64,000 bases of DNA from an uncultured Candidatus Saccharibacteria bacterium (GTDB lineage Bacteria; Patescibacteriota; Minisyncoccia; RBG-13-40-8-A): NCBI GenBank assembly GCA_965231075.1, contig OZ246412.1, positions 91,903 through 155,902 of the forward strand. The letters run 5' to 3'. This document shows, piece by piece, positions 27,226 through 62,490 of this stretch (its first letter is position 1; each line of letters begins with the position of its first letter). Made by a program: the position numbers and the translations under genes. The notes below the pieces were generated by a model that made no database searches, was not told the origin of the DNA, and saw only the letters and a program-made list of their open reading frames with translations.

Positions 27226-27297
27226 AAAAACTCTGCCCCGACCTTGCGTCGGGGTTGACAACAGATTATTATAATGTTAGTATTAGCGCAGCTATAT

Positions 27298-28107
27298 ATG
27301 AAGAAGAAGGTTATAATTTTGGTAGCGGTTTTGATTTTAGTTTTCGTCGGTGGAGTGATGGCGACAAAAATAATTCAAAAAAACAAGATAAACGCCTTAG
27401 GGATAGTTGTTTATGATCCCAAGGCGAATTCTGTTATACAAAGCCCTCTTTTAATTGAGGGCAAGGCAAAAGGCAATTGGTTTTTCGAGGGATCGTTTTC
27501 GGTTGAACTCACGGATGAGAGCAGAAAGCATTTTGCGACTGGCATAGTTCAAACTCGAGACGACTGGATGACAGAAGATTTTGTTTCCTTTGACGCCAAA
27601 TTAGAATTTATTTCTAACACCGAGATTAAGGGGCTTTTAATTTTTAGGAATGCCAATCCTTCCGGCTTGCCGGAAAATTCTCAAGAATTTATTGTGCCGG
27701 TGATTATTCCTAAATCCGAAACTTCTACAATAAAAGTTTATTTTAATAATAACCAAATGGATCCAGAGATTTCTTGTAACAAAGTTTTTCCTGTAGAGCG
27801 AACCATAAAAAAGACAGAAGCGGTTGGCAGAGCAGCGATTGAAGAACTGTTAAAGGGTCCTACCGAACAGGAAAGAAAGCAAGGATTTTTCACAAGTATT
27901 AATTCTGGCGTAAAAATTCAACAACTGACAATCGAAAACGGTATTGCTAAAATTGATTTCAACGAAACCTTACAGGCACAAGTCGGTGGCTCTTGTATGG
28001 TTTCAGCAATTCGCGCCGAAATAATCGAAACCTTAAAACAATTTTCCACAGTTCAAAACGTAATAATTTCTATAGATGGTAAAACTGAAGATATTCTTCA
28101 GCCATAA
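27298..28107 (+). CDS. GerMN domain-containing lipoprotein-like protein
   Basis: Signal/TM N-terminus. C-terminal AVGRAAIEELLKGPTEQERKQGFFTSI...IENGIAKIDFNE matches GerMN. Confidence 0.6.
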   Translation: MKKKVIILVAVLILVFVGGVMATKIIQKNKINALGIVVYDPKANSVIQSPLLIEGKAKGNWFFEGSFSVELTDESRKHFATGIVQTRDDWMTEDFVSFDAKLEFISNTEIKGLLIFRNANPSGLPENSQEFIVPVIIPKSETSTIKVYFNNNQMDPEISCNKVFPVERTIKKTEAVGRAAIEELLKGPTEQERKQGFFTSINSGVKIQQLTIENGIAKIDFNETLQAQVGGSCMVSAIRAEIIETLKQFSTVQNVIISIDGKTEDILQP

Positions 28108-28208
28108 AGTGAAAAGGTCGTTTAATTAAAATTAAAAAAGTTTCTATTCGCAATTTACGTTAAAATATAGTTTATTTTAGAATAAATTGTTCGTGAAATT
28201 TAATTTTC

Positions 28209-28526
28209 GTGATGTTTAGAAAAAGAGATGATTCTCCAAGAAAAATGGTACAAGGAAACTGGAAGTGTTCAAAATGTAATGCCGATATAAACGAGTTACC
28301 ATTTGAACCATCAGGTGATTTGCCAATCTATTGCAGTGCTTGCCACAGAGAAAGAATGGGCGAAAGACGAGGCAATATGGGTGGTAGAAATTTCCAAAGA
28401 CAAATGGTTCAAGGAGACTGGAAATGTGCTAAATGTGGAGTTGATATAAATCAACTTCCATTTCAACCCAAAGAAGGTCAAGAAATTCTTTGCCGAGATT
28501 GCTACAAAGCACAAAAAGGATACTAA
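28209..28526 (+). CDS. tandem zinc-ribbon small protein
   Basis: Internal duplication: MVQGNWKCSKCNADINELPFEPSGDLPIYCSAC and MVQGDWKCAKCGVDINQLPFQPKEGQEILCRDC. Confidence 0.5.
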   Translation: MMFRKRDDSPRKMVQGNWKCSKCNADINELPFEPSGDLPIYCSACHRERMGERRGNMGGRNFQRQMVQGDWKCAKCGVDINQLPFQPKEGQEILCRDCYKAQKGY

Positions 28527-28663
28527 TATCTTTTATAGTTTAAAACAACCCTCCTCGCATTACGGGGGGGGTTGTTTTGTTTCGGTATTGAACATAAATA
28601 AAATATATGCTACTGTAAAAACAAGGAGCGAAAGCACCTTGGAATTTATGAAGGGAGGTTCCC

Positions 28664-28882
28664 ATGTGCGAAGAAGTGCGTTTTTTAATGAAGAAGCTGG
28701 AGGCATTGCGCGCTTCGGGCGTGCAGGACGAAAAAACGGTGGAAATGGAAAGGACGCTGGTCATGGAAATCGGCAAGCGAATCAAAAGCGATCCGAGGGT
28801 GCATAAAGCCCTCGAACACGATCCAACCATCGCCAGTCTGATTAATCCTTCCGACATCGAGAAGCACCCCGTACTCACCTGA
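28664..28882 (+). CDS. small hypothetical protein (72 aa), GC-rich foreign-looking gene
   Basis: GGGAGG RBS, GC ~52%, GC3-rich codons. Terminator gtgcggggtatttttttattt follows. The antisense ORF 28540..28911 was rejected. Confidence 0.45.
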   Translation: MCEEVRFLMKKLEALRASGVQDEKTVEMERTLVMEIGKRIKSDPRVHKALEHDPTIASLINPSDIEKHPVLT

Positions 28883-28925
28883 GTGCGGGGTATTTTTTTA
28901 TTTAAAAACAAGATATAATTAAAAC

Positions 28926-29366
28926 ATGAGCACAGAGTTATTAAAATACGAATCTTATCTGAAAATGATTAAAAATTCAGTGGGAACGAAGATGTTTAGA
29001 AATTTATACCTAAGGGCCGACGGTAAAAAAAATGATGCAACCCACGACGGAATTCTATCTTGTTCTTATTTTGTGTCTAACGTTTTGTTGATTTGGGGGT
29101 TAATTAAAGAGGGGCATGCCAATGTTGAGAGCACAATTAATGATATGCTTAAAAATGGGTGGGTGGAAATTTCTAATGACAAAATTAAACCGGGAGATGT
29201 AATTGTTTGGGAAAAGAAAAAAAGACATTTACATATTGGGTTTTATATTGGTAAGAATAAAGCAGTAAGCAATAGAGAAGAAAAAAAGTTTCCAATTATG
29301 CATAGTTGGGATTATAACGGCAAGAGAAAAATAATTGCAGCATATAGATGCCCACTAAATATATGA
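28926..29366 (+). CDS. hypothetical protein, possible papain-like (NlpC/P60-type) fold
   Basis: Candidate Cys (GILSCSYFVSNV) and His (RHLHIGFYIG) catalytic dyad spacing. Confidence 0.35.
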   Translation: MSTELLKYESYLKMIKNSVGTKMFRNLYLRADGKKNDATHDGILSCSYFVSNVLLIWGLIKEGHANVESTINDMLKNGWVEISNDKIKPGDVIVWEKKKRHLHIGFYIGKNKAVSNREEKKFPIMHSWDYNGKRKIIAAYRCPLNI

Positions 29367-30352
29367 AAATTTTAAAAAAAATTATATTAATTTTAATAAT
29401 AATCGTTGTTGGACTATTTTTATATTTATTTGTTGGGACAACTAAGCCAGCAGAAAATATTAAGTGGGGGATAACTTTTAGCAGGGGATATGCCAGCGAT
29501 TTCGAATCCGATTGGCATAAAATGTTTTTATCAATTTTAAATGATTTGGGTGTTAGAAATTTTAGATTAGTCGCTTATTGGGACGAGATCGAAAAAGAAA
29601 AAGGAAAATACGATTTTTCCGATTTAGATTGGCAGGTAAATGAAGTTTCTAAAAAGGGAGGAGAAATAGTTTTGGCGGTAGGCAAAAGATTACCGAGATG
29701 GCCAGAATGTCACGAGCCTGAATGGCTGAAAAGCGAAAACCAAGAGACACAAAATCAAAAATTGTTTGATTATATCAAAACCACAATTAATCGTTATAAA
29801 AACAATCAGAACATAAAAATCTGGCAAATTGAAAACGAACCGTTTTTAAGAACTTTTGGAATTTGTCCAAAATTAGACAAAAAAGTTTTAGATAAAGAAA
29901 TTGCATTAATTGAAGAGCTAGATGCGTCGAAAAAGATTATGATTACCGAGAGTGGAGAATTTAGCACTTGGATCGGTGGTGCGAGAAGAGCCGATATTGT
30001 GGGGACATCAATTTATCGAACAATTTATGGAAAATTGGGCTATATAACCTATCCAATTCCAGCAGTTTTTTATCACCGCAAAACGAATTTAATAAAATTG
30101 TTTTTTAAGAACCTGGAAATTATTAGTAGTGAAGTGCAAGCCGAACCATGGGGGAGTGTGCCGGTAATTCAAATGACCAACGAACAACGCGACAAATCAA
30201 TGAGTTTTGAAAAATTTAATAAAAATATTGAATACGCGAAGAGAACCGGATTAAATGAATTATATTTATGGGGTGTGGAATGGTGGTATTGGCAAAAAAT
30301 GCAAGGAGATGATAGATATTGGCAAAAAGCCAAAGAATTATTTAATAAATAG
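29348..30352 (+). CDS. glycoside hydrolase, TIM-barrel (GH5/GH42-like)
   Basis: N-terminal TM. IENEPF catalytic acid/base motif of clan GH-A, W-rich barrel. Confidence 0.5.
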   Translation: MPTKYMKILKKIILILIIIVVGLFLYLFVGTTKPAENIKWGITFSRGYASDFESDWHKMFLSILNDLGVRNFRLVAYWDEIEKEKGKYDFSDLDWQVNEVSKKGGEIVLAVGKRLPRWPECHEPEWLKSENQETQNQKLFDYIKTTINRYKNNQNIKIWQIENEPFLRTFGICPKLDKKVLDKEIALIEELDASKKIMITESGEFSTWIGGARRADIVGTSIYRTIYGKLGYITYPIPAVFYHRKTNLIKLFFKNLEIISSEVQAEPWGSVPVIQMTNEQRDKSMSFEKFNKNIEYAKRTGLNELYLWGVEWWYWQKMQGDDRYWQKAKELFNK

Positions 30353-30355
30353 TTT

Positions 30356-31264
30356 ATGATAATAGGCGTTGATATTGGCGGGACAAATATTAAAGGAATC
30401 ATTTTAGATGGTGCGAAAATTCGCTCCAAGGTTCAGTTTGCAACAAAATCTAAAACCAATAAAAAAATTCTTTTAAATCAAGTTTTCAAAATTATTAAAA
30501 CTTTAATTAAAAAAGGAAAAAAGATTAATGGAGTCGGAGTGGGGGTAGCTGGACCGGTTGATTTTGAAAACCAAAAAGTACTAGACCCACCAAACGTAAT
30601 TGCCCTAAAAAACCTGGAACTCGGTAAATTAATTGAAAAAGAATTCAAGATTAAAACCCTAATTGAAAATGATGGACATTTAATGACTCTAGCCGAGGCG
30701 ATTAAGGGAGCGGGGAAAAATAAAAAAAATATTGTTGGCATAACTCTTGGCACGGGCGTGGGCGGGGGAATTGTAATAGATAAAAAGATAGTTCACGGAA
30801 AAACCGGTACTGCCGGAGAGATTGGACACATGAGCATTAATAAATACGGTCGAAAATGTAATTGTGGCAGCAGGGGATGTTTGGAGGCGTATGTTTGTGA
30901 AAACGGAATTCGTAAAACCGCTTATGATTTTTTCAAAAAAAGAATCAAAAGTTACGATTTACATCAAATGGGCAAGAAAGGCAACAAGCAGGCAATCGAA
31001 GCTTGGAACGAAATTGGAAAATCTTTGGGCCTAGGACTAGCGAACATTGTAGATATTTTTAATCCAGAAATAATTATTATTGGTGGTGGAATTGCGCGTG
31101 GAGCGGGGGAACTTTTAATAAACCCCACAAAAAAAGAAATGCGCAAAAATGTTTTATCGGAATCAGCGAAAAGAACACCAGTGGTTTTAGCAAAATTAAA
31201 CGAATATGCTGGTGCAATTGGCGCAAGTTTGTTATTTGATCAATTAAATAAAAAACATGAATAA
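30356..31264 (+). CDS. ROK family glucokinase
   Basis: IIGVDIGGTNIK at the N-terminus, GxGxGGG, CNCGSRGCLEAY zinc motif. Confidence 0.8.
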   Translation: MIIGVDIGGTNIKGIILDGAKIRSKVQFATKSKTNKKILLNQVFKIIKTLIKKGKKINGVGVGVAGPVDFENQKVLDPPNVIALKNLELGKLIEKEFKIKTLIENDGHLMTLAEAIKGAGKNKKNIVGITLGTGVGGGIVIDKKIVHGKTGTAGEIGHMSINKYGRKCNCGSRGCLEAYVCENGIRKTAYDFFKKRIKSYDLHQMGKKGNKQAIEAWNEIGKSLGLGLANIVDIFNPEIIIIGGGIARGAGELLINPTKKEMRKNVLSESAKRTPVVLAKLNEYAGAIGASLLFDQLNKKHE

Positions 31265-31892
31265 TCAAAAAATATATATTATAGTAATTTTAGTTTTATT
31301 ATTGGTTGTGGCGTTTTTGATCTATAATCAATTTTTCAAAACAGACAGGATAAACAATACACCTCAAGGAGCTCCAGGAGAAGAGTTGGTTATTGGTAAC
31401 CAAAAAGCACCGGTTACAATTATAGAATATTACAGTTATTTATGTGGGTATTGTAAAATATTCGAAAATCAAACCATGCCCAAATTGATGAAAAACTATA
31501 TCACTACAGGAAAAGCGAAATTAATTTTAAGACCATTCCCGCCGTATGAACTGGTTGAAGCGGTTTTTTGTGCCAATGATCAAGGCAAGTTTTCTGAATA
31601 TCACAATTATCTTTTTGCTAACAACGACCAGATAAATAGCATAGATATTTTAAAAGCTTTTGCCAATAACCTAGGGTTAAACAAGGACGAATTTGGCGAC
31701 TGTATAGATTCACGAAAATACAAATCTCGCGCCGAAGGAACATATAATCAGGGCAATAATGATTTTAAAAAAGCCAACATTCCCACCGACAAACAAGGCA
31801 CGCCAACATTCTTTATTAACGGCGAAGCAATTATTGGCGCTGTTCCGTATGATGACTTTGTGGAATTAATTGAAAAAAAACTGGCCAATTAA
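31257..31892 (+). CDS. DsbA-family thiol:disulfide oxidoreductase
   Basis: N-terminal TM, thioredoxin fold with CGYC active site. Confidence 0.7.
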   Translation: MNNQKIYIIVILVLLLVVAFLIYNQFFKTDRINNTPQGAPGEELVIGNQKAPVTIIEYYSYLCGYCKIFENQTMPKLMKNYITTGKAKLILRPFPPYELVEAVFCANDQGKFSEYHNYLFANNDQINSIDILKAFANNLGLNKDEFGDCIDSRKYKSRAEGTYNQGNNDFKKANIPTDKQGTPTFFINGEAIIGAVPYDDFVELIEKKLAN

Positions 31893-31894
31893 TC

Positions 31895-33898
31895 ATGGAC
31901 AAAAAGCAAGCCAAAGAAAGAATTGGGAAACTAAAAAAAGAAATTTGGAAGCACAGTTATGCTTATCATGTTTTGGATATGCCAGAAATTTCTGACGCCG
32001 CTTTTGATTCATTAAAAAATGAACTAGAAGAATTAGAGTATAAATTTCCCGAATTAATTACTTCTGACTCGCCAACTCAACGCGTTAGTGGGGAACCGTT
32101 GGATAAATTTCAAAAATTTCATCATGCCGCACCCATGCTTTCTTTTAATGACGCATTTAACAAACAAGAAATGCTTGATTGGCAAAATCGAAATAACAAG
32201 ATCGTTAAAAATTATGACAAAAATGGATATTATTGTGAATTAAAAATCGACGGCTTGGCAATAGAATTAATTTATGAAAAAGGAATTTTAAAAACCGGCT
32301 CAACCCGCGGAGATGGAATAATTGGTGAAGACATAACGCAAAACTTAAGGACCATTGCAAGCATTCCTTTAAAATTAATGAGCCAAGCCCCCGACAAATT
32401 AATTGTGCGTGGAGAAGTTTATTTAAAGACTAAAGAATTCGAAAGAATCAACAGGGAACTTGCACAGAAAAAAGAAAAAACCTATGCTAACCCCAGAAAT
32501 CTGGCTGCTGGTTCGGTTAGACAACTGGACGCCAGAATAACCGCACAACGCAAATTAGATTTTTTTGCCTATGCCCTGATCACTGACATGGGTCAAGAAA
32601 AACACCAACAAGAACATAAAATTTTAAAAGAAATTGGTTTTAAAACCGTACAATATAATAAGTTTTGTCTCAATCTCGAGGAAGTGGAAAAACTGAAGGA
32701 TTATTGGGAAATTGCTAGAGAAAAACTGGATTACGAAATTGATGGATTGGTTGTAATCACTGACGAAAATTCAATGTTTAAAAAATTGGGTGCGGTAGGT
32801 AAGGCGCCTCGAGGAGCAATCGCGTATAAATTTTCCGCTAAAGAAGGAACGACGATTATCGAAGACGTGATTTGGCAGGTTGGCAGAACGGGAGTTTTAA
32901 CTCCGGTAGCAGTATTAAAACCAGTAGATATTGGCGGAGCGACAATTTCACGAGCAACACTTCACAATTTAGATGAAATTAAAAGATTAGAGATAAAAAT
33001 AGGGGACACGGTAATTGTTGGTCGGGCAGGTGACGTGATACCCGATATTATTAAACCACTAAAAGAATTGCGGAACGGAAAAGAAAAAAACATAAAAGTT
33101 CCCTTAACTTGTCCAATTTGTGGTTCGAAAGTGACAAAAATTGGCGATGAAGTTGCTTATCGGTGTGCAGACAAAAATTGTGGTGCGATTCAAAGAGAAA
33201 AAATTTATCATTTCGTATCCAAAAAAGCATTTAATATAATGGGTCTCGGACCCAAGATTGTTGACAGATTTTTAGACGAAGGGTTGATCAAGGATTCTGC
33301 AGATTTGTTTTCATTAAAGGAAGAGGACATAAAACACTTAGAACGTTTTGCTGAAAAATCCGCTGAAAACATTATTAGATCGATTCAATCAAAGAAGGAG
33401 ATTAAATTAGAAAAGTTTTTGTTCGGTTTGGGGATTTTGCAAGTAGGGGAAGAGACGGCGTTTGATTTGGCAAGGGTTTTTGGAGACATAGAAAAAATTA
33501 AAAATTCTTCGATAGAAGAATTAGAAAAAATAAACGATGTCGGACCAAAGGTTGCAGAATCAATACATGCTTGGTTTAGAGAAAAAAAGAACTTAGAATT
33601 TTTGCAAAAACTTAATAAAGCTGGTATAACTATAATAAATCCCCCCATCACGCCAAGGCTTCGCGGGGCAAGTAAAATTCAAAACAAAGTATTTGTTCTA
33701 ACTGGGGAATTAGAATCAATGACCAGGGACGAAGCTAAAGAGAAGATTCGTGATTTAGGTGGCGATGTTTCCGGATCAGTTTCCAAGAATACAAGTTTCG
33801 TAGTCGCCGGATCGGAGCCGGGAAGTAAGCTTGAAAAAGCGCAGAAATTGGGCGTTAAAATAATAAGCGAAAACGAATTTTTAAAGTTAATAAAATGA
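31895..33898 (+). CDS. ligA: NAD-dependent DNA ligase LigA
   Basis: KxDG adenylation motif (ELKIDGLA), Zn finger CPICGS...C..C, HhH and C-terminal BRCT. Confidence 0.9.
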   Translation: MDKKQAKERIGKLKKEIWKHSYAYHVLDMPEISDAAFDSLKNELEELEYKFPELITSDSPTQRVSGEPLDKFQKFHHAAPMLSFNDAFNKQEMLDWQNRNNKIVKNYDKNGYYCELKIDGLAIELIYEKGILKTGSTRGDGIIGEDITQNLRTIASIPLKLMSQAPDKLIVRGEVYLKTKEFERINRELAQKKEKTYANPRNLAAGSVRQLDARITAQRKLDFFAYALITDMGQEKHQQEHKILKEIGFKTVQYNKFCLNLEEVEKLKDYWEIAREKLDYEIDGLVVITDENSMFKKLGAVGKAPRGAIAYKFSAKEGTTIIEDVIWQVGRTGVLTPVAVLKPVDIGGATISRATLHNLDEIKRLEIKIGDTVIVGRAGDVIPDIIKPLKELRNGKEKNIKVPLTCPICGSKVTKIGDEVAYRCADKNCGAIQREKIYHFVSKKAFNIMGLGPKIVDRFLDEGLIKDSADLFSLKEEDIKHLERFAEKSAENIIRSIQSKKEIKLEKFLFGLGILQVGEETAFDLARVFGDIEKIKNSSIEELEKINDVGPKVAESIHAWFREKKNLEFLQKLNKAGITIINPPITPRLRGASKIQNKVFVLTGELESMTRDEAKEKIRDLGGDVSGSVSKNTSFVVAGSEPGSKLEKAQKLGVKIISENEFLKLIK

Positions 33899-35618: not shown

Positions 35619-35673
35619 TCCTCAATATATTGATAACGCTGCTAACAATAATCTGGCCGACAATGTTGGCAAG

Positions 35674-36234: not shown

Positions 36235-36294
36235 TTTGCGTTTTTTAAATTTCGTGTTATTATTTATAAATCCCGAAAATACGGGATAAGTTAT

Positions 36295-36559: not shown

Positions 36560-36563
36560 AATA

Positions 36564-51649: not shown

Positions 51650-51691
51650 AAATTATTTTTACTTATTGAATCTTTCCCGACGTGTGAGTCG

Positions 51692-51731
51692 GGACCCCGA
51701 CCAATGCGTCGGGGTTTTCATATAATTTATG
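51692..51731. repeat. two tandem GC-rich hairpin repeats (CCCGAC-N6-GTCGGG family)
   Basis: cccgacgtgtgagtcggg and accccgaccaatgcgtcgggg, between divergent rpmE and rpsB. Confidence 0.6.
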
Positions 51732-51787
51732 ATATAATATATTTATATGGCAGTCAACCTTGCCCCGTCTTGGCGGGGTAAATGTTG

Positions 51788-51816
51788 ATTTATTTAAATT
51801 CTTATGATAGTATAAA
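51788..51816 (+). promoter_or_regulatory. candidate rpsB promoter (TTGATT-N17-TAGTAT)
   Basis: tgttgatttatttaaattcttatgatagtat, 7 nt upstream of the rpsB start region. Preceded by hairpin ccccgtcttggcgggg. Confidence 0.4.
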
Positions 51817-51822
51817 CTCCAT

Positions 51823-52524
51823 ATGACAAATGAAAATAAAAAAACAATAGTTTCCGAAACATTAGCTAAAGAGATGTTTAGTGCTGGTGTTCATTTTGGA
51901 CACAAAAAAGGTAATCATCATCCCAAGATGGAACAATATATACATGGAATTAAGAACAATATCCAGATTATAAATCTTGAAGAAACAATGAAAGGATTGG
52001 AGAGGGCGCTTAATTTCATTAAAGAAATAGTCGATAAAGGCGGAAAAATTCTTTTTGTCGGCATTAGACCACAGGCTCAGTTAATTTTAAAGGAAACTGC
52101 GGAAAAATGTAAAATGCCGTATGTTTCGCTAAGATGGATAGGCGGACTTTTAACAAATTTTAGAACAGTGAGAAAAAGAATCGATCATTTTATTGGTTTG
52201 GAAAAAAAGAGGGAAGAAGGTGATTTAAAGAAATACACCAAGAAAGAACAGAAGGCGTTTGATAAAGAAATCGATAAGCTAAACAAAAATTTCGGAGGAT
52301 TAAAATCGTTAGACAAGTTGCCAGATGCCGTTTTTATCTTGGGAGTAAAAGATCATTTAACAGCAATTAAAGAAGCGAAAATAAAGAAAATTCCCGTCAT
52401 TTCGCTGGTTGACACAGACAGTAATCCAGAATTAGTTGACTATGTTATTCCCGCTAACGATGAAGCGGTGAGTTCATTGCAATTTATACTTAATCAAGTA
52501 GAAAAAGTAATTATCCCTGAATAA
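51823..52524 (+). CDS. rpsB: 30S ribosomal protein S2
   Basis: GVHFGH, LFVGTK-like, and IDTNS-like (VDTDSNP) motifs. Confidence 0.9.
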   Translation: MTNENKKTIVSETLAKEMFSAGVHFGHKKGNHHPKMEQYIHGIKNNIQIINLEETMKGLERALNFIKEIVDKGGKILFVGIRPQAQLILKETAEKCKMPYVSLRWIGGLLTNFRTVRKRIDHFIGLEKKREEGDLKKYTKKEQKAFDKEIDKLNKNFGGLKSLDKLPDAVFILGVKDHLTAIKEAKIKKIPVISLVDTDSNPELVDYVIPANDEAVSSLQFILNQVEKVIIPE

Positions 52525-53505: not shown

Positions 53506-53513
53506 TTCGACTT

Positions 53514-53584
53514 GCCGACGTAGCTCAGTGGTAGAGCGCCTCCATGGTAAGGAGTAGGTCGTGAGTCCAATTCTCACCGTCGGC
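53514..53584 (+). tRNA. tRNA-Thr (anticodon GGT)
   Basis: Acceptor GCCGACG/CGTCGGC, anticodon loop ATGGTAA, T-arm GTGAG-TCCAATT-CTCAC. Confidence 0.75.
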
Positions 53585-53595
53585 TTATAATAAGC

Positions 53596-53636
53596 CCCGA
53601 CGTATAAGTCGGGGTCCCGACCAAAGCGTCGGGATA
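53596..53636. repeat. two tandem GC-rich hairpin repeats (CCCCGAC-N6-GTCGGGG family)
   Basis: gccccgacgtataagtcgggg and tcccgaccaaagcgtcggga, between the tRNA array and rpmG. Confidence 0.6.
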
Positions 53637-53648
53637 AATAAAATATAT

Positions 53649-53807: not shown

Positions 53808-53812
53808 TTCGC

Positions 53813-53882
53813 GAGGGGGTGTAGTTTAGTGGTAAAACGATGGTCTCCAACCCCGCAGCTGCGGGGCGATTCCTTCCGGGAC
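53813..53882 (+). other. degenerate tRNA-Trp-like element with embedded CCCCGC-AGCT-GCGGGG palindrome
   Basis: Shares the D-arm and anticodon 5' half (tgtagtttagtggtaaaacgatggtctccaa) with tRNA-Trp at 54148. The anticodon 3' stem and T-arm 5' part are replaced by ccccgcagctgcgggg. The acceptor strands are not complementary, so it cannot fold as a tRNA. Confidence 0.5.
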
Positions 53883-53896
53883 ATAATATTATTATT

Positions 53897-54157
53897 ATGA
53901 TGTATTATGTTTATATTCTTAGAAGTTTAAAAGATAAAAGATTGTATATTGGATATACTTCTGATTTAAAATTACGATACAAAGAACATTGCGATGGCAT
54001 GGTTAAATCCACTGCGAACAGAAGACCGCTAGAGTTAATCTATTATGAGGCCTATAAAAACGAAAAAGACGCGAGAAATAGAGAAAAATACTTAAAAGGC
54101 GGTGGCAAGGCACATAATAATTTAAAACAACAAATCGAAAATAGTATGGGCCTGTAG
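53897..54157 (+). CDS. GIY-YIG nuclease family protein (~86 aa)
   Basis: MMYYVYILRSLKDKRLYIGYTSDLKLRYKEH...NRRPLELIYYEAYKNEKDARNREKYLKGGG carries the GIY...YIG, Arg and Glu/Asn core. The ORF-track N-terminal extension reads through the tRNA-like element and was trimmed. Stop overlaps the first nucleotides of tRNA-Trp. Confidence 0.7.
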   Translation: MMYYVYILRSLKDKRLYIGYTSDLKLRYKEHCDGMVKSTANRRPLELIYYEAYKNEKDARNREKYLKGGGKAHNNLKQQIENSMGL

Positions 54158-54218
54158 TTTAGTGGTAGAACGATGGTCTCCAAAACCATTGGTGGGAGTC
54201 CGATTCTCTCCAGGCCCG
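54148..54218 (+). tRNA. tRNA-Trp (anticodon CCA)
   Basis: Acceptor GGGCCTG/CAGGCCC, anticodon stem ATGGT/ACCAT with loop CTCCAAA, T-arm GGGAG-TCCGATT-CTCTC, discriminator G. Confidence 0.8.
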
Positions 54219-54227
54219 ATTGCTTGA

Positions 54228-54274
54228 GATGGGTCTCCAACCCCGCAGCTGCGGGGCGATTCTCTCCAGGCCCG
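54228..54274 (+). repeat. partial tRNA-Trp-derived repeat (second copy of the palindrome-bearing element)
   Basis: agatgggtctccaa + ccccgcagctgcgggg + cgattctctccaggcccg. The last 18 nt are identical to the 3' end of tRNA-Trp; the middle carries the same 16-nt palindrome as 53851-53866. Confidence 0.55.
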
Positions 54275-54281
54275 AACGAAT

Positions 54282-55256: not shown

Positions 55257-55299
55257 ATGGGCCCCGACGCAAGGTCGGGGTAAACTTGACACAACAATT

Positions 55300-55450
55300 T
55301 AAATATAATAGTATAACAACATAATTAAATGGTCGTAGACAACAGGTTGCGAAAGCTTAAATCCTGTCGAGACTGAAAAGTTTGCGAGTCGAGTACTCAC
55401 GAATTTAGAGGTTTGTCTGCGGAAAGGTCGCAGATTTTTAATTTAAAAAC
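55300..55450 (+). promoter_or_regulatory. rplJ (L10) leader with attenuator hairpin
   Basis: Structured untranslated region ending in gtctgcggaaaggtcgcagattttt (stem tctgcg/cgcaga plus T-run) 10 nt before the rplJ start. Consistent with the autoregulatory L10 leader. Confidence 0.45.
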
Positions 55451-55966: not shown

Positions 55967-55984
55967 TTAACATTAAACAAACAC

Positions 55985-56395: not shown

Positions 56396-56418
56396 TTTCA
56401 TAGAGCTTTAAATAAAAA

Positions 56419-56446
56419 CACCCCGCAACCGCGGGGTGTTTTTATT
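56419..56446. terminator. bidirectional intrinsic terminator
   Basis: acaccccgcaaccgcggggtgt flanked by A-run and T-run, between convergent rplL and the 56455..58449 gene. Confidence 0.6.
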
Positions 56447-56454
56447 TGTTTGTA

Positions 56455-58449
56455 TTAGATTTCGATTTTATAAACTTCGGACCCATTCAATAAATAAATT
56501 ACACTTTCATCGTAATCAACCCAGAAGTCCTTAAGATTGTTAAGTTCCGATATGAAATATTGTTTTATTAATCCATCTTTTTTGTTGTAAGAAATAATTC
56601 GGGTATTGGTTTTGTCTAAAATGTAAAGATTTTTAAAATCAGAATGGGTAAATAATTTTTCTACACTAAATAGGGCGGGGGAGATGTCTATTTTAAGTTC
56701 TTTATTTTTCTTGCCCTGAGAATATTGAATAATTTTTCCGTTTGACAACGCTACATACACATCGCCATCCACGGCCAGAGAGACGGCATCCTTTAGTTCG
56801 TCGGTTGGGCCTTGCATGATCCATTGCGAACCATTTAAAATATCTTCCGTTTTCGAGTATTTAAAAACATTTAGTTTTTGTGTGTCCAGAAAAAATAGAT
56901 TATCGCCATAAGTCGCCATGCTTTTAATGTTTAGGGTATTCTCTAGATTTGGTTTTAATAAATAAATATTATAATTTTCGTTATAATTGTAAACAGCAAT
57001 TTTTTCTGGATTAGCCAACAGTAACACCTCGTTATTTGTTGCGGTTCCCAATTTAAACGTATCTTTTGACGAAAGAAATATAAGCTTCGACGAATTATCG
57101 ATTAAGTCGATTCTGTGCAAAAATCCAGAGCTTAATTCGTAAAGATAAACAATATTTTCTAATTTAATTAGTCCTTGAGGATTAAACGGATAAACGCTTT
57201 GTGATAAGTCAGCGATTTTTTCGGGTGATTCAATATTAATGACATTGTTAAGGCTATTTTTTTGTTGATCGAATAATTCTTGAGCAGATTGTAGGCTTTG
57301 AGAAACTTTATTTTTTGCACCCAAGGGAAGACTGATAAACAACAAATTCACATTCTCTAATAATGTGGTTGCCTGTTTTAAAAAGGCCTTTGCTTCTGAC
57401 TGGTTTTGATAAATTAAGGACAACTTGCTTCGGTCGACATTTTCTTGGGTGCGCTGTATAAGGTTGTTGATTTGTCTAATTTTAATGTCGTAATTTATCT
57501 TTAATATAAAATAAGGTGCAATAAGAATATTTAACATTACGAACAAAACCAGAAGATATTTTATAATTTGATATCGGAAAAAGAACATTGTTGTTTTGCC
57601 GGGAAGGGTGATTTGGTCTTTGATAATTTTATCAATTTTATCTATTTTAAAATCTATTGTTTTTTTAAAATTAAATTTAATTTCCGTTGATTGATCCGCG
57701 TTGTTATTGGTTTCGATTTGAGTTAAATGAGAAATCTCGTGTTTTTCTAGTTTTTGAATCGACGCGTCTAATAACAAACAGGCTAATGAGTTTGATTCTG
57801 ATAAACTATTTTTAACGTGATGATAAAACTTATCGGTCGTAAAGCCAGAGATCATTTCTTTTATTTTGGAAGCGGTAACGATTTTTAAAATATTAACAGT
57901 GCTAATTAGAATTTTATCGCCATGTTCAATTTCTCCGCTAGCAATATTAGAAAATGTTCTAGTTGGTTCGGGGGCATCTGGAGATTCAAATTTCTTGCTG
58001 ATATTGGACGCGGTGTCGTTACGGAACAATTGTACGATCATTTTACCGGTTTGTCCCACATGAATTTTGCCTCCAGAAAAAGACAAACAAACAAAATTTA
58101 AGTTATCGATCCACTCATTGTGTCCTTTCTTTGCAAAATCAGCTAAATAGATATTAGCACTTTGTAATGCCGATTCTAATGCTTCCAACGAACTTCTTTG
58201 TGGGTTAGAATAAAAATCTCTACGAATTGCCGAACTTAAAAGATTTAAAATAAAATCAGAATTTTTATATTTCTTTTTCGGAATATTGGTAATTTCTCCA
58301 ACAATATAAAGATTGCCAAGTTTCAAATCCTGTTCGTCAATAGCTTCATACGAAAAAACCCCACAAATTGAATCTTTTTTCTTTTTGGGGTCTTGATAGA
58401 CGATTTCTCGGTAATACAAATTAAGATTTTCTGAATCCATTAATATCAT
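56455..58449 (-). CDS. large hypothetical protein with internal TM helix and PP2C/SpoIIE-like segment
   Basis: 665 aa from MILMDSENLNLYY. A segment resembling PP2C/SpoIIE phosphatase (GDKILISTVNI), one TM (YLLVLFVMLNILIAPYFIL), then a repeat-rich C-terminal half. The ORF-track N-terminus 58450..58683 is the antisense of a Lys-rich gene and was trimmed. Confidence 0.5.
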   Translation of the reverse strand: MILMDSENLNLYYREIVYQDPKKKKDSICGVFSYEAIDEQDLKLGNLYIVGEITNIPKKKYKNSDFILNLLSSAIRRDFYSNPQRSSLEALESALQSANIYLADFAKKGHNEWIDNLNFVCLSFSGGKIHVGQTGKMIVQLFRNDTASNISKKFESPDAPEPTRTFSNIASGEIEHGDKILISTVNILKIVTASKIKEMISGFTTDKFYHHVKNSLSESNSLACLLLDASIQKLEKHEISHLTQIETNNNADQSTEIKFNFKKTIDFKIDKIDKIIKDQITLPGKTTMFFFRYQIIKYLLVLFVMLNILIAPYFILKINYDIKIRQINNLIQRTQENVDRSKLSLIYQNQSEAKAFLKQATTLLENVNLLFISLPLGAKNKVSQSLQSAQELFDQQKNSLNNVINIESPEKIADLSQSVYPFNPQGLIKLENIVYLYELSSGFLHRIDLIDNSSKLIFLSSKDTFKLGTATNNEVLLLANPEKIAVYNYNENYNIYLLKPNLENTLNIKSMATYGDNLFFLDTQKLNVFKYSKTEDILNGSQWIMQGPTDELKDAVSLAVDGDVYVALSNGKIIQYSQGKKNKELKIDISPALFSVEKLFTHSDFKNLYILDKTNTRIISYNKKDGLIKQYFISELNNLKDFWVDYDESVIYLLNGSEVYKIEI

Positions 58450-58504
58450 TTTAACATTAAAAAAACCTTTACAAAAGGGGAATTTAGAGGTAGGATGGTG
58501 ATAT

Positions 58505-59290
58505 ATGAAAAAGAAGATGAAGAAAACCAAGAAGATAGCCAAAAAGTCCGTTAAAAAGACGCGGAAACGAATTTTAAAGCACAAAAAAACGATAAAAAGG
58601 ACCCACAAGAAAACCAATAAGACCCGCAAGGTTAAAACAATTAAGAGGGCCAATAAGAAAGTTAAAAAGATTAAGAAGAACAAGGTTAGAGCGTCTAAAC
58701 CTAAGAATGTAGTTGGGAGGGGAACACTTGAACAATTATTTGAGTCATTGGCGAAGGTTAAGTTGATGAAATTCTTTTTTAGAAACCCGGTAGATGCGTT
58801 TCAAATTAGAGAAATTTTAAAAATGGTAAGAACAAATAATTCTGCTGTAAAACAAGAAATCAAAAAATTAGAGAAAATTGGTTTAATCGAAAGTCGCAAA
58901 AGACAAGGAAGAATAGTTTATTCTTTGAACAACAATTTTGACTTCCTAAAAGAATTAAAAGATTTAATTTTAAAATCAACCATCTCTTCAAAAAGTGAAC
59001 TAATTAACAATGTGCGCAAAATAGGCAATGTAAAACTATTGGTTTTGGCAGGAATTTTTAGAAATAGCGAAATTGATGGAGCAGACATATTAATTGTAGG
59101 AGATAAAATTAACACCAGAAAATTAATTACATTCACCAAAGATTTAGAGGCAGAGGTGGGCAAAGAATTAAATTGTGCAACTATGTCAGCAAAAGAATTT
59201 AATTATCGTTATGATATGTATGACCGTTTCGTTAGAGATTTAATTAACGAAAACAAAGACATTTTGATTAACAAGTTGAATTTGTGGTAA
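58505..59290 (+). CDS. DNA-binding protein: Lys-rich histone-H1-like N-terminal tail fused to winged helix
   Basis: First ~65 aa are about 50% K/R (KKKMKKTKKIAKKSVKKTRKRILKHKKTIKRTHKKTNKTRKVK...). Then a wHTH (IREILKMVRTNNSAVKQEIKKLEKIGLIESRKRQGRIVYSL) and a C-terminal domain. Confidence 0.5.
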   Translation: MKKKMKKTKKIAKKSVKKTRKRILKHKKTIKRTHKKTNKTRKVKTIKRANKKVKKIKKNKVRASKPKNVVGRGTLEQLFESLAKVKLMKFFFRNPVDAFQIREILKMVRTNNSAVKQEIKKLEKIGLIESRKRQGRIVYSLNNNFDFLKELKDLILKSTISSKSELINNVRKIGNVKLLVLAGIFRNSEIDGADILIVGDKINTRKLITFTKDLEAEVGKELNCATMSAKEFNYRYDMYDRFVRDLINENKDILINKLNLW

Positions 59291-59307
59291 AATATGGGCT
59301 AGAACCG

Positions 59308-59378
59308 GGGCGTGTAGTTCAGTGGTAGAACGTTGCATTCACATTGCAAAGATCCATGGTTCGAGTCCATGCACGCCC
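59308..59378 (+). tRNA. tRNA-Val (anticodon CAC)
   Basis: Acceptor GGGCGTG/CACGCCC, anticodon stem TTGCA/TGCAA with loop TTCACAT, T-arm CATGG-TTCGAGT-CCATG. Confidence 0.7.
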
Positions 59379-59447
59379 AAAAAAGAAATAAATCGATTTT
59401 TGTCGGTTTATTTTTTTATTTCCTAAAATATTGTATAATGTATAAGT

Positions 59448-59822
59448 ATGATAGTTTTGATATTTTGGAGATGGTATTATGGGGAAGCGCTGAAAAATGT
59501 TTTAACTGCATGGCGAAATTTTATTATTTTTGCTATCAATTATTTTTCCATTCCTTTATTGTTAAAAACTTTAATTTCTCCGTGGAGGAGAGATATTACT
59601 AAAAGACCGCGCGGGCTTGATTTGAAAAAGTTTTTTGAGTATTTGGCGTTTAATGCTATTTCTCGTGGAATAGGTTTTTTGATTAGATTTTTCACGATTA
59701 TTGTAGGGATTGTATATTTATTGCTTACCATTGTTTTTGGGGCAATATTTTTTGTTTTGTGGATCGTTTTACCCTTATTAATATTAGGGTTATTAATTTT
59801 TGCCATAACACTATTAGTTTAA
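59448..59822 (+). CDS. hypothetical membrane protein
   Basis: Three or four TM helices. Immediately upstream of, and coupled to, the Clp-like ATPase. Confidence 0.35.
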   Translation: MIVLIFWRWYYGEALKNVLTAWRNFIIFAINYFSIPLLLKTLISPWRRDITKRPRGLDLKKFFEYLAFNAISRGIGFLIRFFTIIVGIVYLLLTIVFGAIFFVLWIVLPLLILGLLIFAITLLV

Positions 59823-59823
59823 T

Positions 59824-62361
59824 ATGTTTGATTTAGAAAAAAACAATTTTGTTTATAGGTCGGTGCAACTAGAAAGGGTTTTTCCTCTTAGAATTATGCG
59901 AATTTGGGGGATCGTGCTCATATTAATTGCATTAATATTTTTTCTGGGAATTTTTAAACCGGGATTTTTAAATCTAAATTCGCAACAAAATTTTGCCTTA
60001 TTTATAATTTTCGTTTGTTGTTTTGTGATTTGCATTATTTATGTTGCCTTCATTGATGCTTTGCGTCAGAATTTTTTAATTAAAACATCCTTATCAGAGC
60101 GTTTATCGCAAGAAAAAATTAAAGACGTGAACTTGGCCGAATATTTGGACTTTAGGGTTGCACGAGCGATTATTAAATCAATAAAATTTTGTCAAAGAAA
60201 AAAGAGGGGACTAAATGTTTTCATGGTTGTTTATAATCTTTGGAGCGATTCACGAGGCAGAGACATTTTTACTAAACTAGGACTAGAAGAGAATTTGTTT
60301 AAAGAAAAATTAACAACAGAAATCAAGAAAAATGTTGAGGCAATCGTTGATGAGCAGAAATTTATTGTTACGCTAAAAAGAGCCACGGCCTTGGCAATAT
60401 CCCATTTTCACAGAAATATTGATATTCGAGATTTTCTAATTGCTGCCGCGGAAGAAGATGAAAATTTTCTTGATATTTTATCTAAAAACGAGATGAATTC
60501 TGAAGACGTTGATCGCGTAGCAGTTTGGGAGGACTATATTGAAAATGAGATTAGAAGAAAAAGTCAGTTTTGGAAGCTAGATAACTTATTGCGCAAAAGG
60601 GGAGTTGGTAAACGATGGGCTGCGGGCTACACTGTGAATTTGGACAACTACAGTGTTGAAATTAATGATATTTTCAAAAAACAAGATCTTTCAATTCATT
60701 TAATGGGTCATCAAAAAGAAATCTATGCAATCGAAAGAATTTTGTCGCGTAGTGGAGAAAATAACGTTTTGTTGGTTGGGGAATCGGGATCCGGTAGATC
60801 GACGGTTGCATATGGCTTTGCCAAAAAAGCCATCGAAGGAAGATCGTTTTCGAATTTAAACGATAAAAGAATTTTAGAATTAGACATGCAGGCAGTTCTT
60901 TCGGGAATCAGCGATCCCGGAAAAATATTGGAAAGATTAAGAATAATTTTTTCCGAAGCCGTGAGTGCGGGAAACATAATTTTAATCATCGACGAAATAC
61001 ACAACTACTTAGGAGTTGATAAGGGTCCAGGGACAGTAGATATCACTTCGGTTTTATTGCCATATTTAAGTTCTTCAAATTTTCAAATTATTGGTTTAAC
61101 GACTTTTGACGGTTGGCACAGATATATTGAAAACAACGCATCAGTAAAAAATCTTTTTGTTAAGGTAGAAATGAATGTTTTGACTCAGGAACAAATAATT
61201 TTCATTCTTCAGGACATGTTGCCCAAATTTGAGAAACAATATGGCGTTTTTGTAAGTTATAAAATTCTAAGAAACATAGTTCAGCTAACAGATCGTTACA
61301 TTCAAGACAAGCCATTTCCCCAAAAAGCAATTGATATTTTAACGGAGGTATTAATTTATGCTAAACAGAAAGGCGAAAAAGTTATTCCGCCAGAATATGT
61401 TAATCGTATTGTTTCCGAAAGAGTAGAAATCCCCATTGGTGTAATCAAGGAAGATGAAAAGAAAAAACTTTTAGAATTAGAGCAAAGAATACATCAACGA
61501 GTAGTTGATCAAGAGGAGGCAGTAAAAAGTATTGCTCAGGCAATGCGTAGGGCGAGAGTGGGGATTAAATCTCGCAAAAGACCGATTGGGAGCTTCTTAT
61601 TTCTTGGTCCTACCGGCGTAGGTAAAACCGAAACCTCTAAGGCTCTAGCGGAAGCATATTTTGGTTCGGAGACAAAAATGATTAGGTTTGATATGTCGGA
61701 ATATCAGGAAATTTCTAATATTAGTCGTTTAATTGGTTCCATGGAAAAAGACGAACCGGGACTTTTGGCCAAGGCCGTTTTAGATGATCCCTTTTCGGTT
61801 GTTTTATTAGATGAAATCGAAAAAGCTCATCCCAATATCTTAAATCTATTTTTACAGGTTCTTGACGAAGGATTTTTGACTGATGCTTTTGGCAGAAAAA
61901 TAAATTTTTCGGAATCGATTATTATCGGCACATCTAATGCCGGAGCAGAACTAATCAGACAATGTGTGAGACAGGGAAGAGATCTTCAGTCATTTAAAGA
62001 CGATTTAGTTGATTATTTAATGAAAGAGGGAATATTTAGAGCTGAATTTTTGAACCGCTTCGATGCAACGGTAGTATTTAAACCGTTGGCTCATGAACAC
62101 TTAATTAAGATTGCAATTTTGATGATGAACGATTTATCAAAAAGATTATTAGAGGGGACGGGAGTAAGACTGGTGGTTACCCCCGACCTAATTGAAAAAA
62201 TTGTTAAAATCGGATATAAACCAGAGTTTGGCGCAAGACCAATGAGAAGGGCAATTCAAGATGAAATCGAAAGTCGGGTCGCAAAAATAATTTTAGAGCA
62301 AGACTTAAAACGTGGTGATTTTGTAAAAATCGAAGCAAGTGAAATTGGCGGTGGAGTGTAA
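59824..62361 (+). CDS. membrane-anchored ClpB/ClpC-like double AAA+ ATPase
   Basis: Two N-terminal TM helices. D1 has an atypical Walker A GESGSGRST (Arg in place of Lys) and Walker B ILIIDEIH. D2 is canonical (GPTGVGKTETSKALA; VVLLDEIEKAHP) with a C-terminal small domain. Confidence 0.75.
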   Translation: MFDLEKNNFVYRSVQLERVFPLRIMRIWGIVLILIALIFFLGIFKPGFLNLNSQQNFALFIIFVCCFVICIIYVAFIDALRQNFLIKTSLSERLSQEKIKDVNLAEYLDFRVARAIIKSIKFCQRKKRGLNVFMVVYNLWSDSRGRDIFTKLGLEENLFKEKLTTEIKKNVEAIVDEQKFIVTLKRATALAISHFHRNIDIRDFLIAAAEEDENFLDILSKNEMNSEDVDRVAVWEDYIENEIRRKSQFWKLDNLLRKRGVGKRWAAGYTVNLDNYSVEINDIFKKQDLSIHLMGHQKEIYAIERILSRSGENNVLLVGESGSGRSTVAYGFAKKAIEGRSFSNLNDKRILELDMQAVLSGISDPGKILERLRIIFSEAVSAGNIILIIDEIHNYLGVDKGPGTVDITSVLLPYLSSSNFQIIGLTTFDGWHRYIENNASVKNLFVKVEMNVLTQEQIIFILQDMLPKFEKQYGVFVSYKILRNIVQLTDRYIQDKPFPQKAIDILTEVLIYAKQKGEKVIPPEYVNRIVSERVEIPIGVIKEDEKKKLLELEQRIHQRVVDQEEAVKSIAQAMRRARVGIKSRKRPIGSFLFLGPTGVGKTETSKALAEAYFGSETKMIRFDMSEYQEISNISRLIGSMEKDEPGLLAKAVLDDPFSVVLLDEIEKAHPNILNLFLQVLDEGFLTDAFGRKINFSESIIIGTSNAGAELIRQCVRQGRDLQSFKDDLVDYLMKEGIFRAEFLNRFDATVVFKPLAHEHLIKIAILMMNDLSKRLLEGTGVRLVVTPDLIEKIVKIGYKPEFGARPMRRAIQDEIESRVAKIILEQDLKRGDFVKIEASEIGGGV

Positions 62362-62442
62362 AAGCTGTGCATAACTTTTTGGTGGTTTTGTAAAATTTCC
62401 CTCTACATAGAGGGAAATTTTTGTTTTGGCGAAGAGGGCTCG

Positions 62443-62490
62443 CTCCGACCTTGCGTCGGGGTTGACACGTGTATTTTAGTGGATTAAAAT
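62443..62490 (+). promoter_or_regulatory. GC-rich hairpin repeat fused to mraZ promoter (TTGACA-N17-TAAAAT)
   Basis: ctccgaccttgcgtcgggg hairpin directly abutting TTGACA (62462-62467); 17-nt spacer; TAAAAT (62485-62490). ~85 nt upstream of mraZ. Confidence 0.55.

Follow-up and report, generated by a model that had tools for sequence, protein, structure and literature searches.

Patescibacteria have tiny, streamlined genomes that are usually thought to be poor in repetitive or selfish DNA. In Rickettsia, selfish palindromes of 100-150 bp (Rickettsia palindromic elements, RPEs) reportedly lie in frame in housekeeping and RNA genes, where the peptide they add falls in a tolerant loop (Ogata and co-workers are said to have described this in 2000), and we know of no partner nuclease for them. 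Mitochondrial double-hairpin elements (DHEs) are said, from work by Paquin and co-workers in 2000, to occur in Allomyces also in protein-coding regions, near mobile endonuclease open reading frames (ORFs) that bring with them a duplicated piece of the host gene. The phage GIY-YIG nuclease SegB has about 220 aa and a C-terminal DNA-binding domain. GIY-YIG genes of this kind in phages T4 and T6 sit in tRNA clusters and are tied to local tRNA duplication and amplification (PMC2330249; PMC13096335), while DHEs are mostly intergenic, are found also in rRNA genes, are near-identical between species and are suspected to be mobile by a mechanism that is unexplained (PMC10085805). SLX1 and ANKLE1 cut branched or cruciform DNA and not a specific sequence (PMC8287910, PMC10287932). 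Here we analyse a family of GC-rich CCCGAC...GTCGGG hairpins in a 64,000-nt stretch of an uncultured Candidatus Saccharibacteria bacterium (assembly GCA_965231075.1, contig OZ246412.1, positions 91,903 to 155,902; hereafter the window), together with its relatives.

These hairpins are likely, in our view, to represent a small palindromic element of selfish DNA with a wide distribution in Patescibacteria, a mobile double hairpin resembling REPINs (inverted pairs of repetitive extragenic palindromes, REPs), DHEs and RPEs and probably partnered with a GIY-YIG nuclease. Its copies are tolerated wherever a short GC hairpin fits, that is, in gaps between stop codons and promoters, in 5' leaders, in tRNA-mRNA spacers and in flexible protein loops, and we infer that the elements are, or recently were, mobile selfish DNA.

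The window holds seven hairpins at five loci, three of them solo units and two of them head-to-head doublets (elements A and B), all extragenic and set in 35%-GC DNA (Table 1). The exact pattern CCCCGAC-N4-8-GTCGGGG matched four times and CCCGAC-N3-10-GTCGGG six times, with 0 matches expected from 100 dinucleotide shuffles. When one mismatch per arm was allowed there were nine matches (Markov mean 0.77), seven of them real and including the degenerate 62.4-kb copy; as further degenerate copies in the window, this search offered only two chance-like matches, at 8634 and 51545. An earlier, sequence-only reading of this DNA had claimed at least seven hairpins at five loci, which the pattern searches against shuffles bear out, and two sets of its coordinates had to be corrected by 3-17 nt (51692-51709/51711-51731 were about 17 nt off and 55265-55283 was shifted; the present positions are in Table 1). 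Its other descriptive points hold as well: the 23-mer CCGACCTTGCGTCGGGGTTGACA, TTGACA included, has the same letters at 27238-27260 and 62445-62467 (these two copies have about 30 nt in common, again with TTGACA), the loop of the 55.3-kb copy is the reverse complement of CTTGC, and three copies lie 5' of TTGACA, at 0, 0 and 5 nt upstream of TTGACA-17-TA(G/A)(T/A)AT promoter-like sites. These sites precede a GerMN/Germane gene (TTGACA-17-TAGTAT, 27.2 kb), the L10 leader (TTGACA-17-TAGTAT, 55.3 kb) and mraZ (TTGACA-17-TAAAAT, 62.4 kb), and the tRNA-Thr to rpmG spacer that holds element B is too small for a promoter.

Folded as single-stranded DNA, the elements reach -8.6 to -14.6 kcal/mol (z = -2.7 to -4.7), apart from the degenerate copy (z = +0.5), whose CTCCGAC arm leaves a stem of 5 bp as DNA and of 7 bp as RNA with a G.U pair. 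Each window doublet folds as two separate hairpins, at about -14 kcal/mol (z = -3.5 to -4.7). Apart from the hairpins, the 64 kb contain just two occurrences of the 7-mer arms, and the idea of a DNA-uptake sequence was rejected on that ground. With Rfam 15, no hairpin was matched in the whole window at the gathering threshold, nor at E up to 1 in the 51.4-55.5 kb region that holds five of the seven; the scans matched only tRNAs and a near-threshold L10 leader. This leader (55315-55449) scores 41.3 bits with RF00557 (E = 2e-4), just under the gathering score of 44, and is therefore missed by a default scan. At 27.2 kb the GerMN gene probably starts at ATG 27298 (MKKKVIILVAV...), since ATG 27274 overlaps a TATAAT-like sequence. 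Next to element B, tRNA-Thr(GGT) at 53514-53585 has the acceptor stem GCCGACG/CGTCGGC, which contains the CCGACG...CGTCGG also present in the doublets' outer arms. The match may be accidental, or it may hint at an origin of the element from a tRNA acceptor stem or at mimicry of one.

Table 1. Hairpin copies and associated features of the 64-kb window (positions are those of the window)
Feature	Position	Strand	Context
Solo unit CCCCGAC-CTTGC-GTCGGGG	27236-27254		10 nt past the stop of a CAP-domain gene (27225); abuts TTGACA (27255)
Remnant AAAGATTCA (resembles rpmE codons 2-5), then spacer ATAAGTAAAAATAATTT	51650-51674	minus	between element A and the rpmE ATG
Double-hairpin element A, TCCCGAC-GTGTGA-GTCGGGA + CCCCGAC-CAATGC-GTCGGGG	51675-51694 + 51695-51714		in the minus-strand rpmE transcript, between -10 box and ATG
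Remnant of a first rpmE start, ATGAAAA	51715-51721	minus	7 nt after the -10 box TATCAT (51734-51729)
Double-hairpin element B, CCCCGAC-GTATAA-GTCGGGG + TCCCGAC-CAAAGC-GTCGGGA	53595-53614 + 53615-53634		9 nt past tRNA-Thr(GGT), 14 nt ahead of the rpmG ATG
GIY-YIG ORF beside tRNA-Trp	53897-54157	+	flanking partial tRNA-Trp copies carry CCCCGC-AGCT-GCGGGG, not the CCCGAC family
Solo unit, inverted, CCCCGAC-GCAAG-GTCGGGG	55262-55280		5 nt past the mltG/yceG stop, 5 nt ahead of the rplJ-leader TTGACA
Solo unit, degenerate 5' arm, CTCCGAC-CTTGC-GTCGGGG	62444-62462		past the clpB terminator (62392-62421); abuts the mraZ TTGACA (62462)

A metagenome scan with the tandem-pair pattern found the doublet on at least 120 contigs, nearly all of them with a GC content of 0.30-0.58 (one at 0.76 was a chance match); the family statistics given here and below are drawn from the matches listed in that scan. 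Among 2.9 million viral contigs there were only two doublet matches, both by chance and in 66%-GC coding DNA. Each unit is in essence an asymmetric hairpin, (N)CCCGAC-G-NNNN(N)-GTCGGG(N), and it usually appears as a doublet, with two inverted units separated by 0-2 nt and 36-40 nt in total. In 89 of the 89 doublets with 5-6-nt loops, both window doublets included, the first loop has G as its initial base and the second has C as its last, so that a doublet consists of one asymmetric unit present twice in inverted orientation. For the 28 doublets with 4-nt loops an analogous rule mostly holds (C first, G last), as judged by eye and uncounted. Changes in the outer base pairs go along with changes in the linker halves (TC..GA, CC..GG, AG..CT; also read by eye, uncounted), suggesting that two separate hairpins, rather than one long hairpin, are maintained. 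Some loops recur in both orientations among 130 non-redundant doublets (CGAAGC, GTAAA, GTTTCA, CTTGC, CAAAGC, AGAATC), window loops among them, and 264 flanks show a weak preference for YAG before and YTR after the element, with T-Y-A-R before the stem. The idea of an L31/L33 leader RNA, drawn from a shared orientation of both window doublets towards the downstream ribosomal-protein gene, was given up, since their loops orient both the same way on the plus strand and a doublet is in any case symmetric.

The doublets occupy spacers and 5' leaders, interrupt duplicated 5' pieces of tRNA genes and rpmE, and also stand in frame within housekeeping genes. As a unit with a 4-nt loop measures 18 nt, its doublet amounts to 12 codons, and it translates as PTxVGxPTxVG from either strand. 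In-frame hosts include the rplL hinges of three genomes, gatB in two, secA, pheT, murB and ftsJ, as well as genes for a TPP enzyme, a UvrD-like helicase, a GT4 glycosyltransferase and a TrwB-like ATPase; all of the host ORFs remain open and retain their Pfam domain sets. When a doublet lies in an indispensable 5' end (the D-arm of a tRNA, the first rpmE codons), an intact duplicate of that 5' end follows directly downstream. The typical order at tRNA genes is a tRNA 5' fragment, the doublet, the rest of the D-loop, a short spacer and an intact tRNA 8-60 nt downstream, the D-arm being interrupted between GTAG and CTCAG or between GCTCAG and TTGG. A tRNA was found within 150 nt of 24 of the 130 doublets, as compared with 4.8% at random positions, and in 19 of these 24 the doublet is 5' of the tRNA. 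Some filled sites carry partial duplications of the target gene of 15-37 nt, and a flank repeat of at least 10 nt lies near 24 of 137 doublets.

We also considered whether the tRNA-linked doublets are introns or expansions of functional tRNAs and rejected this, as ARAGORN finds no tRNA across the excised site and the pieces are 5' fragments in front of an intact tRNA. At one such site (L105:12403-12521) an 84-nt unit made of a tRNA-Lys 5' fragment, the doublet and a spacer stands twice in tandem before the intact tRNA-Lys, which suggests repeated rounds of the same event or local amplification as for phage SegB. Upstream of rpmG in the relative L211 (L211:2600-2960), a tRNA-Thr 5' fragment GCCGACGTAGCTCAGTGGTAGA is split by a long GC-rich palindrome of the CCTGCCCGCC...GGCGGGG type, with an additional short fragment, gccgacgtagg, upstream, and tRNA-Thr 5'-end fragments (GCCGACGTAG...) are duplicated repeatedly in this genome. 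Duplication of tRNA 5' fragments with an internal hairpin is therefore not limited to the CCGAC family.

Retrieval by RpsB puts the window in Patescibacteria, next to metagenome-assembled genomes of Paceibacteria/Portnoybacteria-like type. The nearest species representative, L001, has an RpsB 91% identical to that of the window, about 80% nucleotide identity and the same gene order; L211, located through its identical RpmG, has about 77% nucleotide identity to the window. A MraZ look-up returned only L212, at 100% identity, which is from the same genome as the window; this Logan assembly contig (run SRR12133403) is 100% identical to window 59577-64000, so that the source genome or a clone of it occurs in that public run. 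An exact-protein look-up with the MltG of the window gave no record. Copies are gained and lost between these genomes. Comparison for presence or absence, which the sequence-only reading had proposed between strains, covered three loci with orthologues: relatives of 77-80% nucleotide identity either lack the hairpins there or have another copy at a different offset. Against L002 and L003, whose tRNA-Thr/rpmG spacer reads ...gtcggctCCATAAGTAAAAATAAAAAAATG, element B stands out as a clean insertion of 40 nt, and the same spacer is without the element in L001 and L211. The 55.3-kb solo hairpin is missing from L002 and L211, both of which keep the TTGACA, while L001 has an unrelated or decayed sequence before its own TTGACA. 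L002 instead carries a doublet inside the L10 leader, as a clean insertion between gtttg and tgtctgcg, and L001 has a decayed CCGAC copy in the hinge of rplL, where the window has none.

Element A lies between a minus-strand promoter, TTGACT-17-TATCAT (51757-51729), and the rpmE ATG (51649), and the minus-strand order in the window is TATCAT, N7, ATGAAAA, the doublet, AAAGATTCA, ATAAGTAAAAATAATTT and ATGAAAAAAGATATTCA..., in other words a duplicated and interrupted rpmE 5' end followed by the intact gene. Both the element and the duplication are missing from L002, L003, L005, L006, L007 and L211, where the -10 box is about 7 nt from the ATG; the remnant ATGAAAA of the window occupies the position of this leaderless start. 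The spacer ATAAGTAAAAATAATTT and the rpmE 5' duplication are common to the window, L001 and L122, and the spacer is missing in the element-less relatives. L001 and L122 have a doublet of the 4-nt-loop subfamily, at remnant offsets of +19 and +10 as compared with +7 in the window, and these different subfamilies and offsets make rpmE a recurrent landing site and not a conserved structure. The reading frame that opens at the old leaderless ATG and runs through the doublet stops 9 nt before the rpmE ATG in the window and 8 nt before it in L122, and overlaps the ATG in L001. Such an upstream reading frame may carry ribosomes through element A to the new start codon of rpmE, and could, speculatively and from the sequence, keep rpmE translated.

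In this lineage both rpmE and rpsB look leaderless because their -10 boxes are about 7 nt from the ATG, in the relatives for rpmE and likewise in the window for rpsB (a likely -10 box, by eye; 51794-51825, plus strand). Between the divergent rpmE and rpsB -35 boxes there is a further hairpin, CCCCG-tcttgg-CGGGG (51760-51781), that has a counterpart at the same position in every relative examined (L001, L003, L005-L007, L122, L211), but with its own sequence in each; the L001 and L122 hairpins touch both -35 hexamers. Since the DNA of this spacer is probably not transcribed, a terminator is excluded there, which leaves a permissive landing site or a structure at the DNA level.

When the 1,997 ORFs located up to 2.5 kb from a doublet were clustered, the largest family shared across contigs was a GIY-YIG protein of 86-92 aa (12 loci, median distance 15 nt). 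GIY-YIG (PF01541) was the only recurrent mobile-element-type family among these ORFs, with no transposase cluster. The proteins consist of the catalytic domain only (PF01541, E = 1e-13 to 1e-16 in four proteins, the window ORF included), with no separate DNA-binding domain in their 86-92 aa, and their best matches among solved structures are UPF0213 (YhbQ-like) proteins (1zg2, 1ywl) and SLX1 chains. In L091, L112, L122 and L173 the cassette runs tRNA 5' fragment, doublet, rest of the D-loop, ATG...stop, intact tRNA. Members of the hairpin-linked clade, of 89 aa, almost always have the doublet 10-45 nt before the ATG and an intact tRNA 0-20 nt past the stop. CCGAC hairpins lie just 5' of 11 of the 12 genes of this clade, versus 2 of the 14 genes of a second GIY-YIG clade, near which other GC palindromes tend to be present.

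As a test independent of the hairpins, the protein database was searched with one of the GIY-YIG proteins, which yielded six homologues, five of them with DNA. CCGAC hairpins stand 10-45 nt before the ATG in all four close homologues with DNA (61-65% identity, from Nomurabacteria/Paceibacterota); past the stops of these four, ARAGORN called a tRNA in three, at 3-18 nt, and the sequence is tRNA-like by eye in the fourth (L207). The distant homologue (44% identity, beside uvrB) has neither hairpins nor tRNA. At 53817-54277 the GIY-YIG ORF of the window and an intact tRNA-Trp (54147-54219) stand between two partial tRNA-Trp copies, in each of which the palindrome CCCCGCAGCTGCGGGG (53851-53866, 54241-54256) takes the place of the central 17 nt. 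L002 and L211 have rpmG followed directly by a single tRNA-Trp and no GIY-YIG gene, so that the window locus is an insertion with tRNA regeneration.

The coding strand of tsaD (807-1961, minus) contains, in frame at 1512-1553, a 42-nt GC-rich imperfect palindrome, CCCCGCCCGCCACGCAAGACAGCTTGCTGGCGTTGCGGGCAG, which places PARHARQLAGVAGR between the motifs HLEGH and LLVSGGHT. Its identity to L001:17102-17143 is 97.6%, versus about 80% between the genomes overall, and that copy lies just upstream of a GIY-YIG gene followed by tRNA-Val. It looks like a second family of palindromic elements with the same habits.

We put forward as a possibility, with appreciably less confidence than the selfish-element interpretation itself, that doublets and 89-aa GIY-YIG proteins together form a previously undescribed mobile-element system, a counterpart of REPIN/RAYT in which a minimal structure-specific nuclease recognises the extruded CCGAC double hairpin and the autonomous form resides in tRNA operons. 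In such a system the autonomous form would comprise a tRNA 5' fragment, the doublet, the nuclease gene and a regenerated tRNA, within tRNA operons, and the non-autonomous doublets would have colonised spacers, leaders, tRNA genes and essential reading frames across Patescibacteria, adding 12-residue PTxVGxPTxVG loops. Within the selfish-element interpretation itself, the Slx1/UPF0213-like nuclease, having no DNA-binding domain, would recognise extruded hairpins or the conserved CCGAC stem, and would either mobilise the doublets or home next to them; conservation of the CCGAC stem across GC-divergent lineages is most easily explained by a conserved protein partner. Solo hairpins and ORF-less doublets, such as the window copies, would be non-autonomous, and for the host the window copies would be at most tolerated 5'-leader hairpins. 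In the literature searched, coverage of which is incomplete, we found no description of the elements or of a GIY-YIG-hairpin partnership in Patescibacteria.

Several observations weigh against the selfish-element interpretation. The sample was chosen by the doublet pattern itself, so its context frequencies are not unbiased. Contigs that differ widely in GC content share the stem and even loops, which a conserved host function could explain instead of, or besides, selfish spread. There is no regular target-site duplication (0 nt at element B, possibly 2 nt, TG, in L002), and target duplications range from 0 to about 37 nt, which to our knowledge fits no known transposase or insertion mechanism; this variability may stem from selection favouring events in which the hit gene is restored. 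What ties the nuclease to the doublets is an association, with no transposition, cleavage or homing event observed, and the window is without a GIY-YIG gene of the hairpin-linked clade, its one such gene belonging to the second clade and being flanked by another palindrome. Finally, all three solo copies abut a -35 box and two share 23 nt with TTGACA, which short spacers and the weak flank preference explain only in part.

Among other explanations, the hairpins could act as RNA on behalf of the host, as intrinsic terminators or insulators or as REP-like mRNA stabilisers or processing sites, their repetition reflecting a stem preferred in this lineage. Each of the three solo copies does separate a stop codon or terminator from the promoter that follows, and doublets are often at transcript 5' ends (the rpmE leader, tRNA 5' fragments). 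Two copies have a terminator-like score on one strand (51691-51718, plus; 27254-27236, minus), outer base pairs appear by eye to covary, and the degenerate 62.4-kb copy attains seven pairs only with G.U, a hint of RNA. However, a sense-strand T-run is absent in at least five of the seven hairpins (it is present at 51695-51714 on the plus strand), classical hairpin-plus-T-run terminators exist in the same window, and efficient termination would be lethal in the rpmE leader, the tRNA-Thr/rpmG spacer, the L10 leader of L002 and the secA, gatB and pheT frames. Relatives do without the hairpins at the same sites, and no Rfam family was matched within the scans above. Overall we regard a host RNA function as improbable.

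A little less credible still, and in our view unlikely, is that the hairpins are not mobile themselves and are scars of GIY-YIG cassette insertion and deletion or of repair after nuclease cutting, or else an expression signal of the nuclease gene, spread by recombination or descent. The fixed place of the doublet, 10-45 nt upstream of the GIY-YIG start codon, would fit such an origin, as would the resemblance of ORF-less doublets in duplicated tRNA and rpmE 5' fragments to cassettes minus their ORF. Phage SegB, a GIY-YIG homing endonuclease linked to tRNA genes, drives segmental amplification (PMC13096335). Yet exact 36-nt in-frame copies in at least ten unrelated housekeeping genes cannot be the remains of a 300-nt cassette, and element B and the L10-leader copy of L002 are clean insertions with no cassette remnants. 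Most listed doublets have no nearby GIY-YIG gene, and random repair scars would not retain one stem and a strict inverted-doublet rule across lineages.

The sequence-only reading had also offered a regulator-binding palindrome at the promoters of core operons. The adjacency to TTGACA in the window arises largely because the spacers from stop codon to -35 box are 29-36 nt, of which the hairpin makes up 19, so any tolerated insertion ends beside TTGACA; without the hairpin the spacers would be 10-17 nt, and the adjacency is almost forced. The TTGACA shared at 27.2 and 62.4 kb may be explained either by a -35 box that matches the right-flank preference (YTRA = TTGA) or by a sub-element that carries it. 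We therefore give very little credence to operators of a dimeric regulator, or to a promoter part upstream of -35, co-ordinating mraZ, rplJ and ribosomal-protein genes, despite the position of all three solo copies, 0-5 nt before TTGACA-17-TAxxAT sites, the one 23-mer with TTGACA at two promoters and the GC hairpin within 8 nt upstream of 4 of the 10 strongest promoter-like sites of the window: the rplJ promoters of L001, L002, L003, L013 and L211 and the sole available mraZ promoter (of the distant L013) keep TTGAC(A/T) with no such hairpin, the orthologous upstream regions of rpmE and rpmG lack hairpins, only 2 of 158 hairpin clusters elsewhere have TTGAC[AT] within 14 nt (0.8% background), most copies are far from promoters (in coding regions, tRNA fragments and leaders), copies occur in both orientations, and an arm spacing of 4, 5 or 6 nt is a poor fit for a dimeric operator.

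For Patescibacteria, hairpins in secA, gatB, pheT, rplL, tRNA genes and ribosomal-protein leaders show these genomes being invaded, and also one way of coping, by a duplicated 5' end of the hit gene and at rpmE possibly by translation through the element from an upstream start. In practice the repeats can mislead gene callers into spurious N-terminal extensions and tRNA pseudo-fragments, mislead the prediction of terminators and promoters, and break metagenome assemblies. Should the nuclease link prove functional, the large UPF0213-like group of stand-alone GIY-YIG proteins would receive a first role, and the mobilisers of REP-like elements would gain a new enzyme class.

Set beside known systems, the elements match neither intrinsic terminators nor transcription-factor operators. 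The sequence-only reading had called them REP/MITE-like, which stands as regards a palindrome family (presence and absence between relatives, a wide spread in Patescibacteria metagenomes, inverted doublets, in-frame copies) and fails for a strict miniature inverted-repeat transposable element (MITE): the element is hairpins alone, with no terminal inverted repeats around a body, no regular target-site duplication of fixed length, and no transposase or parent insertion sequence seen. Like RPEs, they are palindromic repeats, probably selfish, in a reduced genome; they differ in size, at 36-40 nt, the 36-nt form being 12 codons. As in GIY-YIG homing cassettes there is a catalytic domain, here with no separate sequence-specific DNA-binding domain. 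Indirect signs of possible homing are the filled and empty tRNA-Trp sites (the window versus L002 and L211) and the tRNA 5' end regenerated downstream of the ORF. SegB is phage-borne, whereas the proteins described here have 86-92 aa, are chromosomal in Patescibacteria and are accompanied by a hairpin doublet. SLX1 for its part needs SLX4 and has an extra RING domain; the Patescibacteria proteins are known here from sequence alone.

The DHEs of chytrid fungi and Schizosaccharomyces mitochondria, and the GC clusters of yeast mitochondria, are likewise adjacent pairs of GC-rich hairpins in a compact AT-rich genome. The family described here shares with DHEs two hairpins in AT-rich DNA, sites that are intergenic, in RNA genes and in coding sequence, and identity of stem and loops across lineages. 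Compartment and sequence differ, and we take the likeness as analogy and do not claim homology; in the literature searched we found no DHE description with the inverted-unit rule, tRNA 5'-fragment duplications or a GIY-YIG link. The REP/REPIN-RAYT systems of gamma-proteobacteria, with the BIMEs (bacterial interspersed mosaic elements) of E. coli, differ in that the partner here is GIY-YIG and not an HUH/Y1 (IS200-like) transposase, that the units are shorter (18-20 nt) and perfect hairpins, and that copies also occupy coding frames and tRNA fragments, with a stem that is shared across lineages and not species-specific. The 5' GTAG/GTGG of REPs is lacking, GTAG appearing only where the target is a tRNA D-stem, and no RAYT (PF01797) flanked by repeats was found among the ORFs within 2.5 kb of doublets, a RAYT elsewhere in these genomes being possible. 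REPs have many copies per genome, mostly extragenic. The window has 7 hairpins in 64 kb, all of them extragenic; copies elsewhere are often intragenic and in frame. At the same time, both are short, GC-rich palindromes that appear to be repeated through a genome, probably for the most part in transcribed spacers, both form inverted doublets (here 89 of the 89 listed with 5-6-nt loops), and both come with a dedicated single-copy gene of nuclease type flanked by the repeat.

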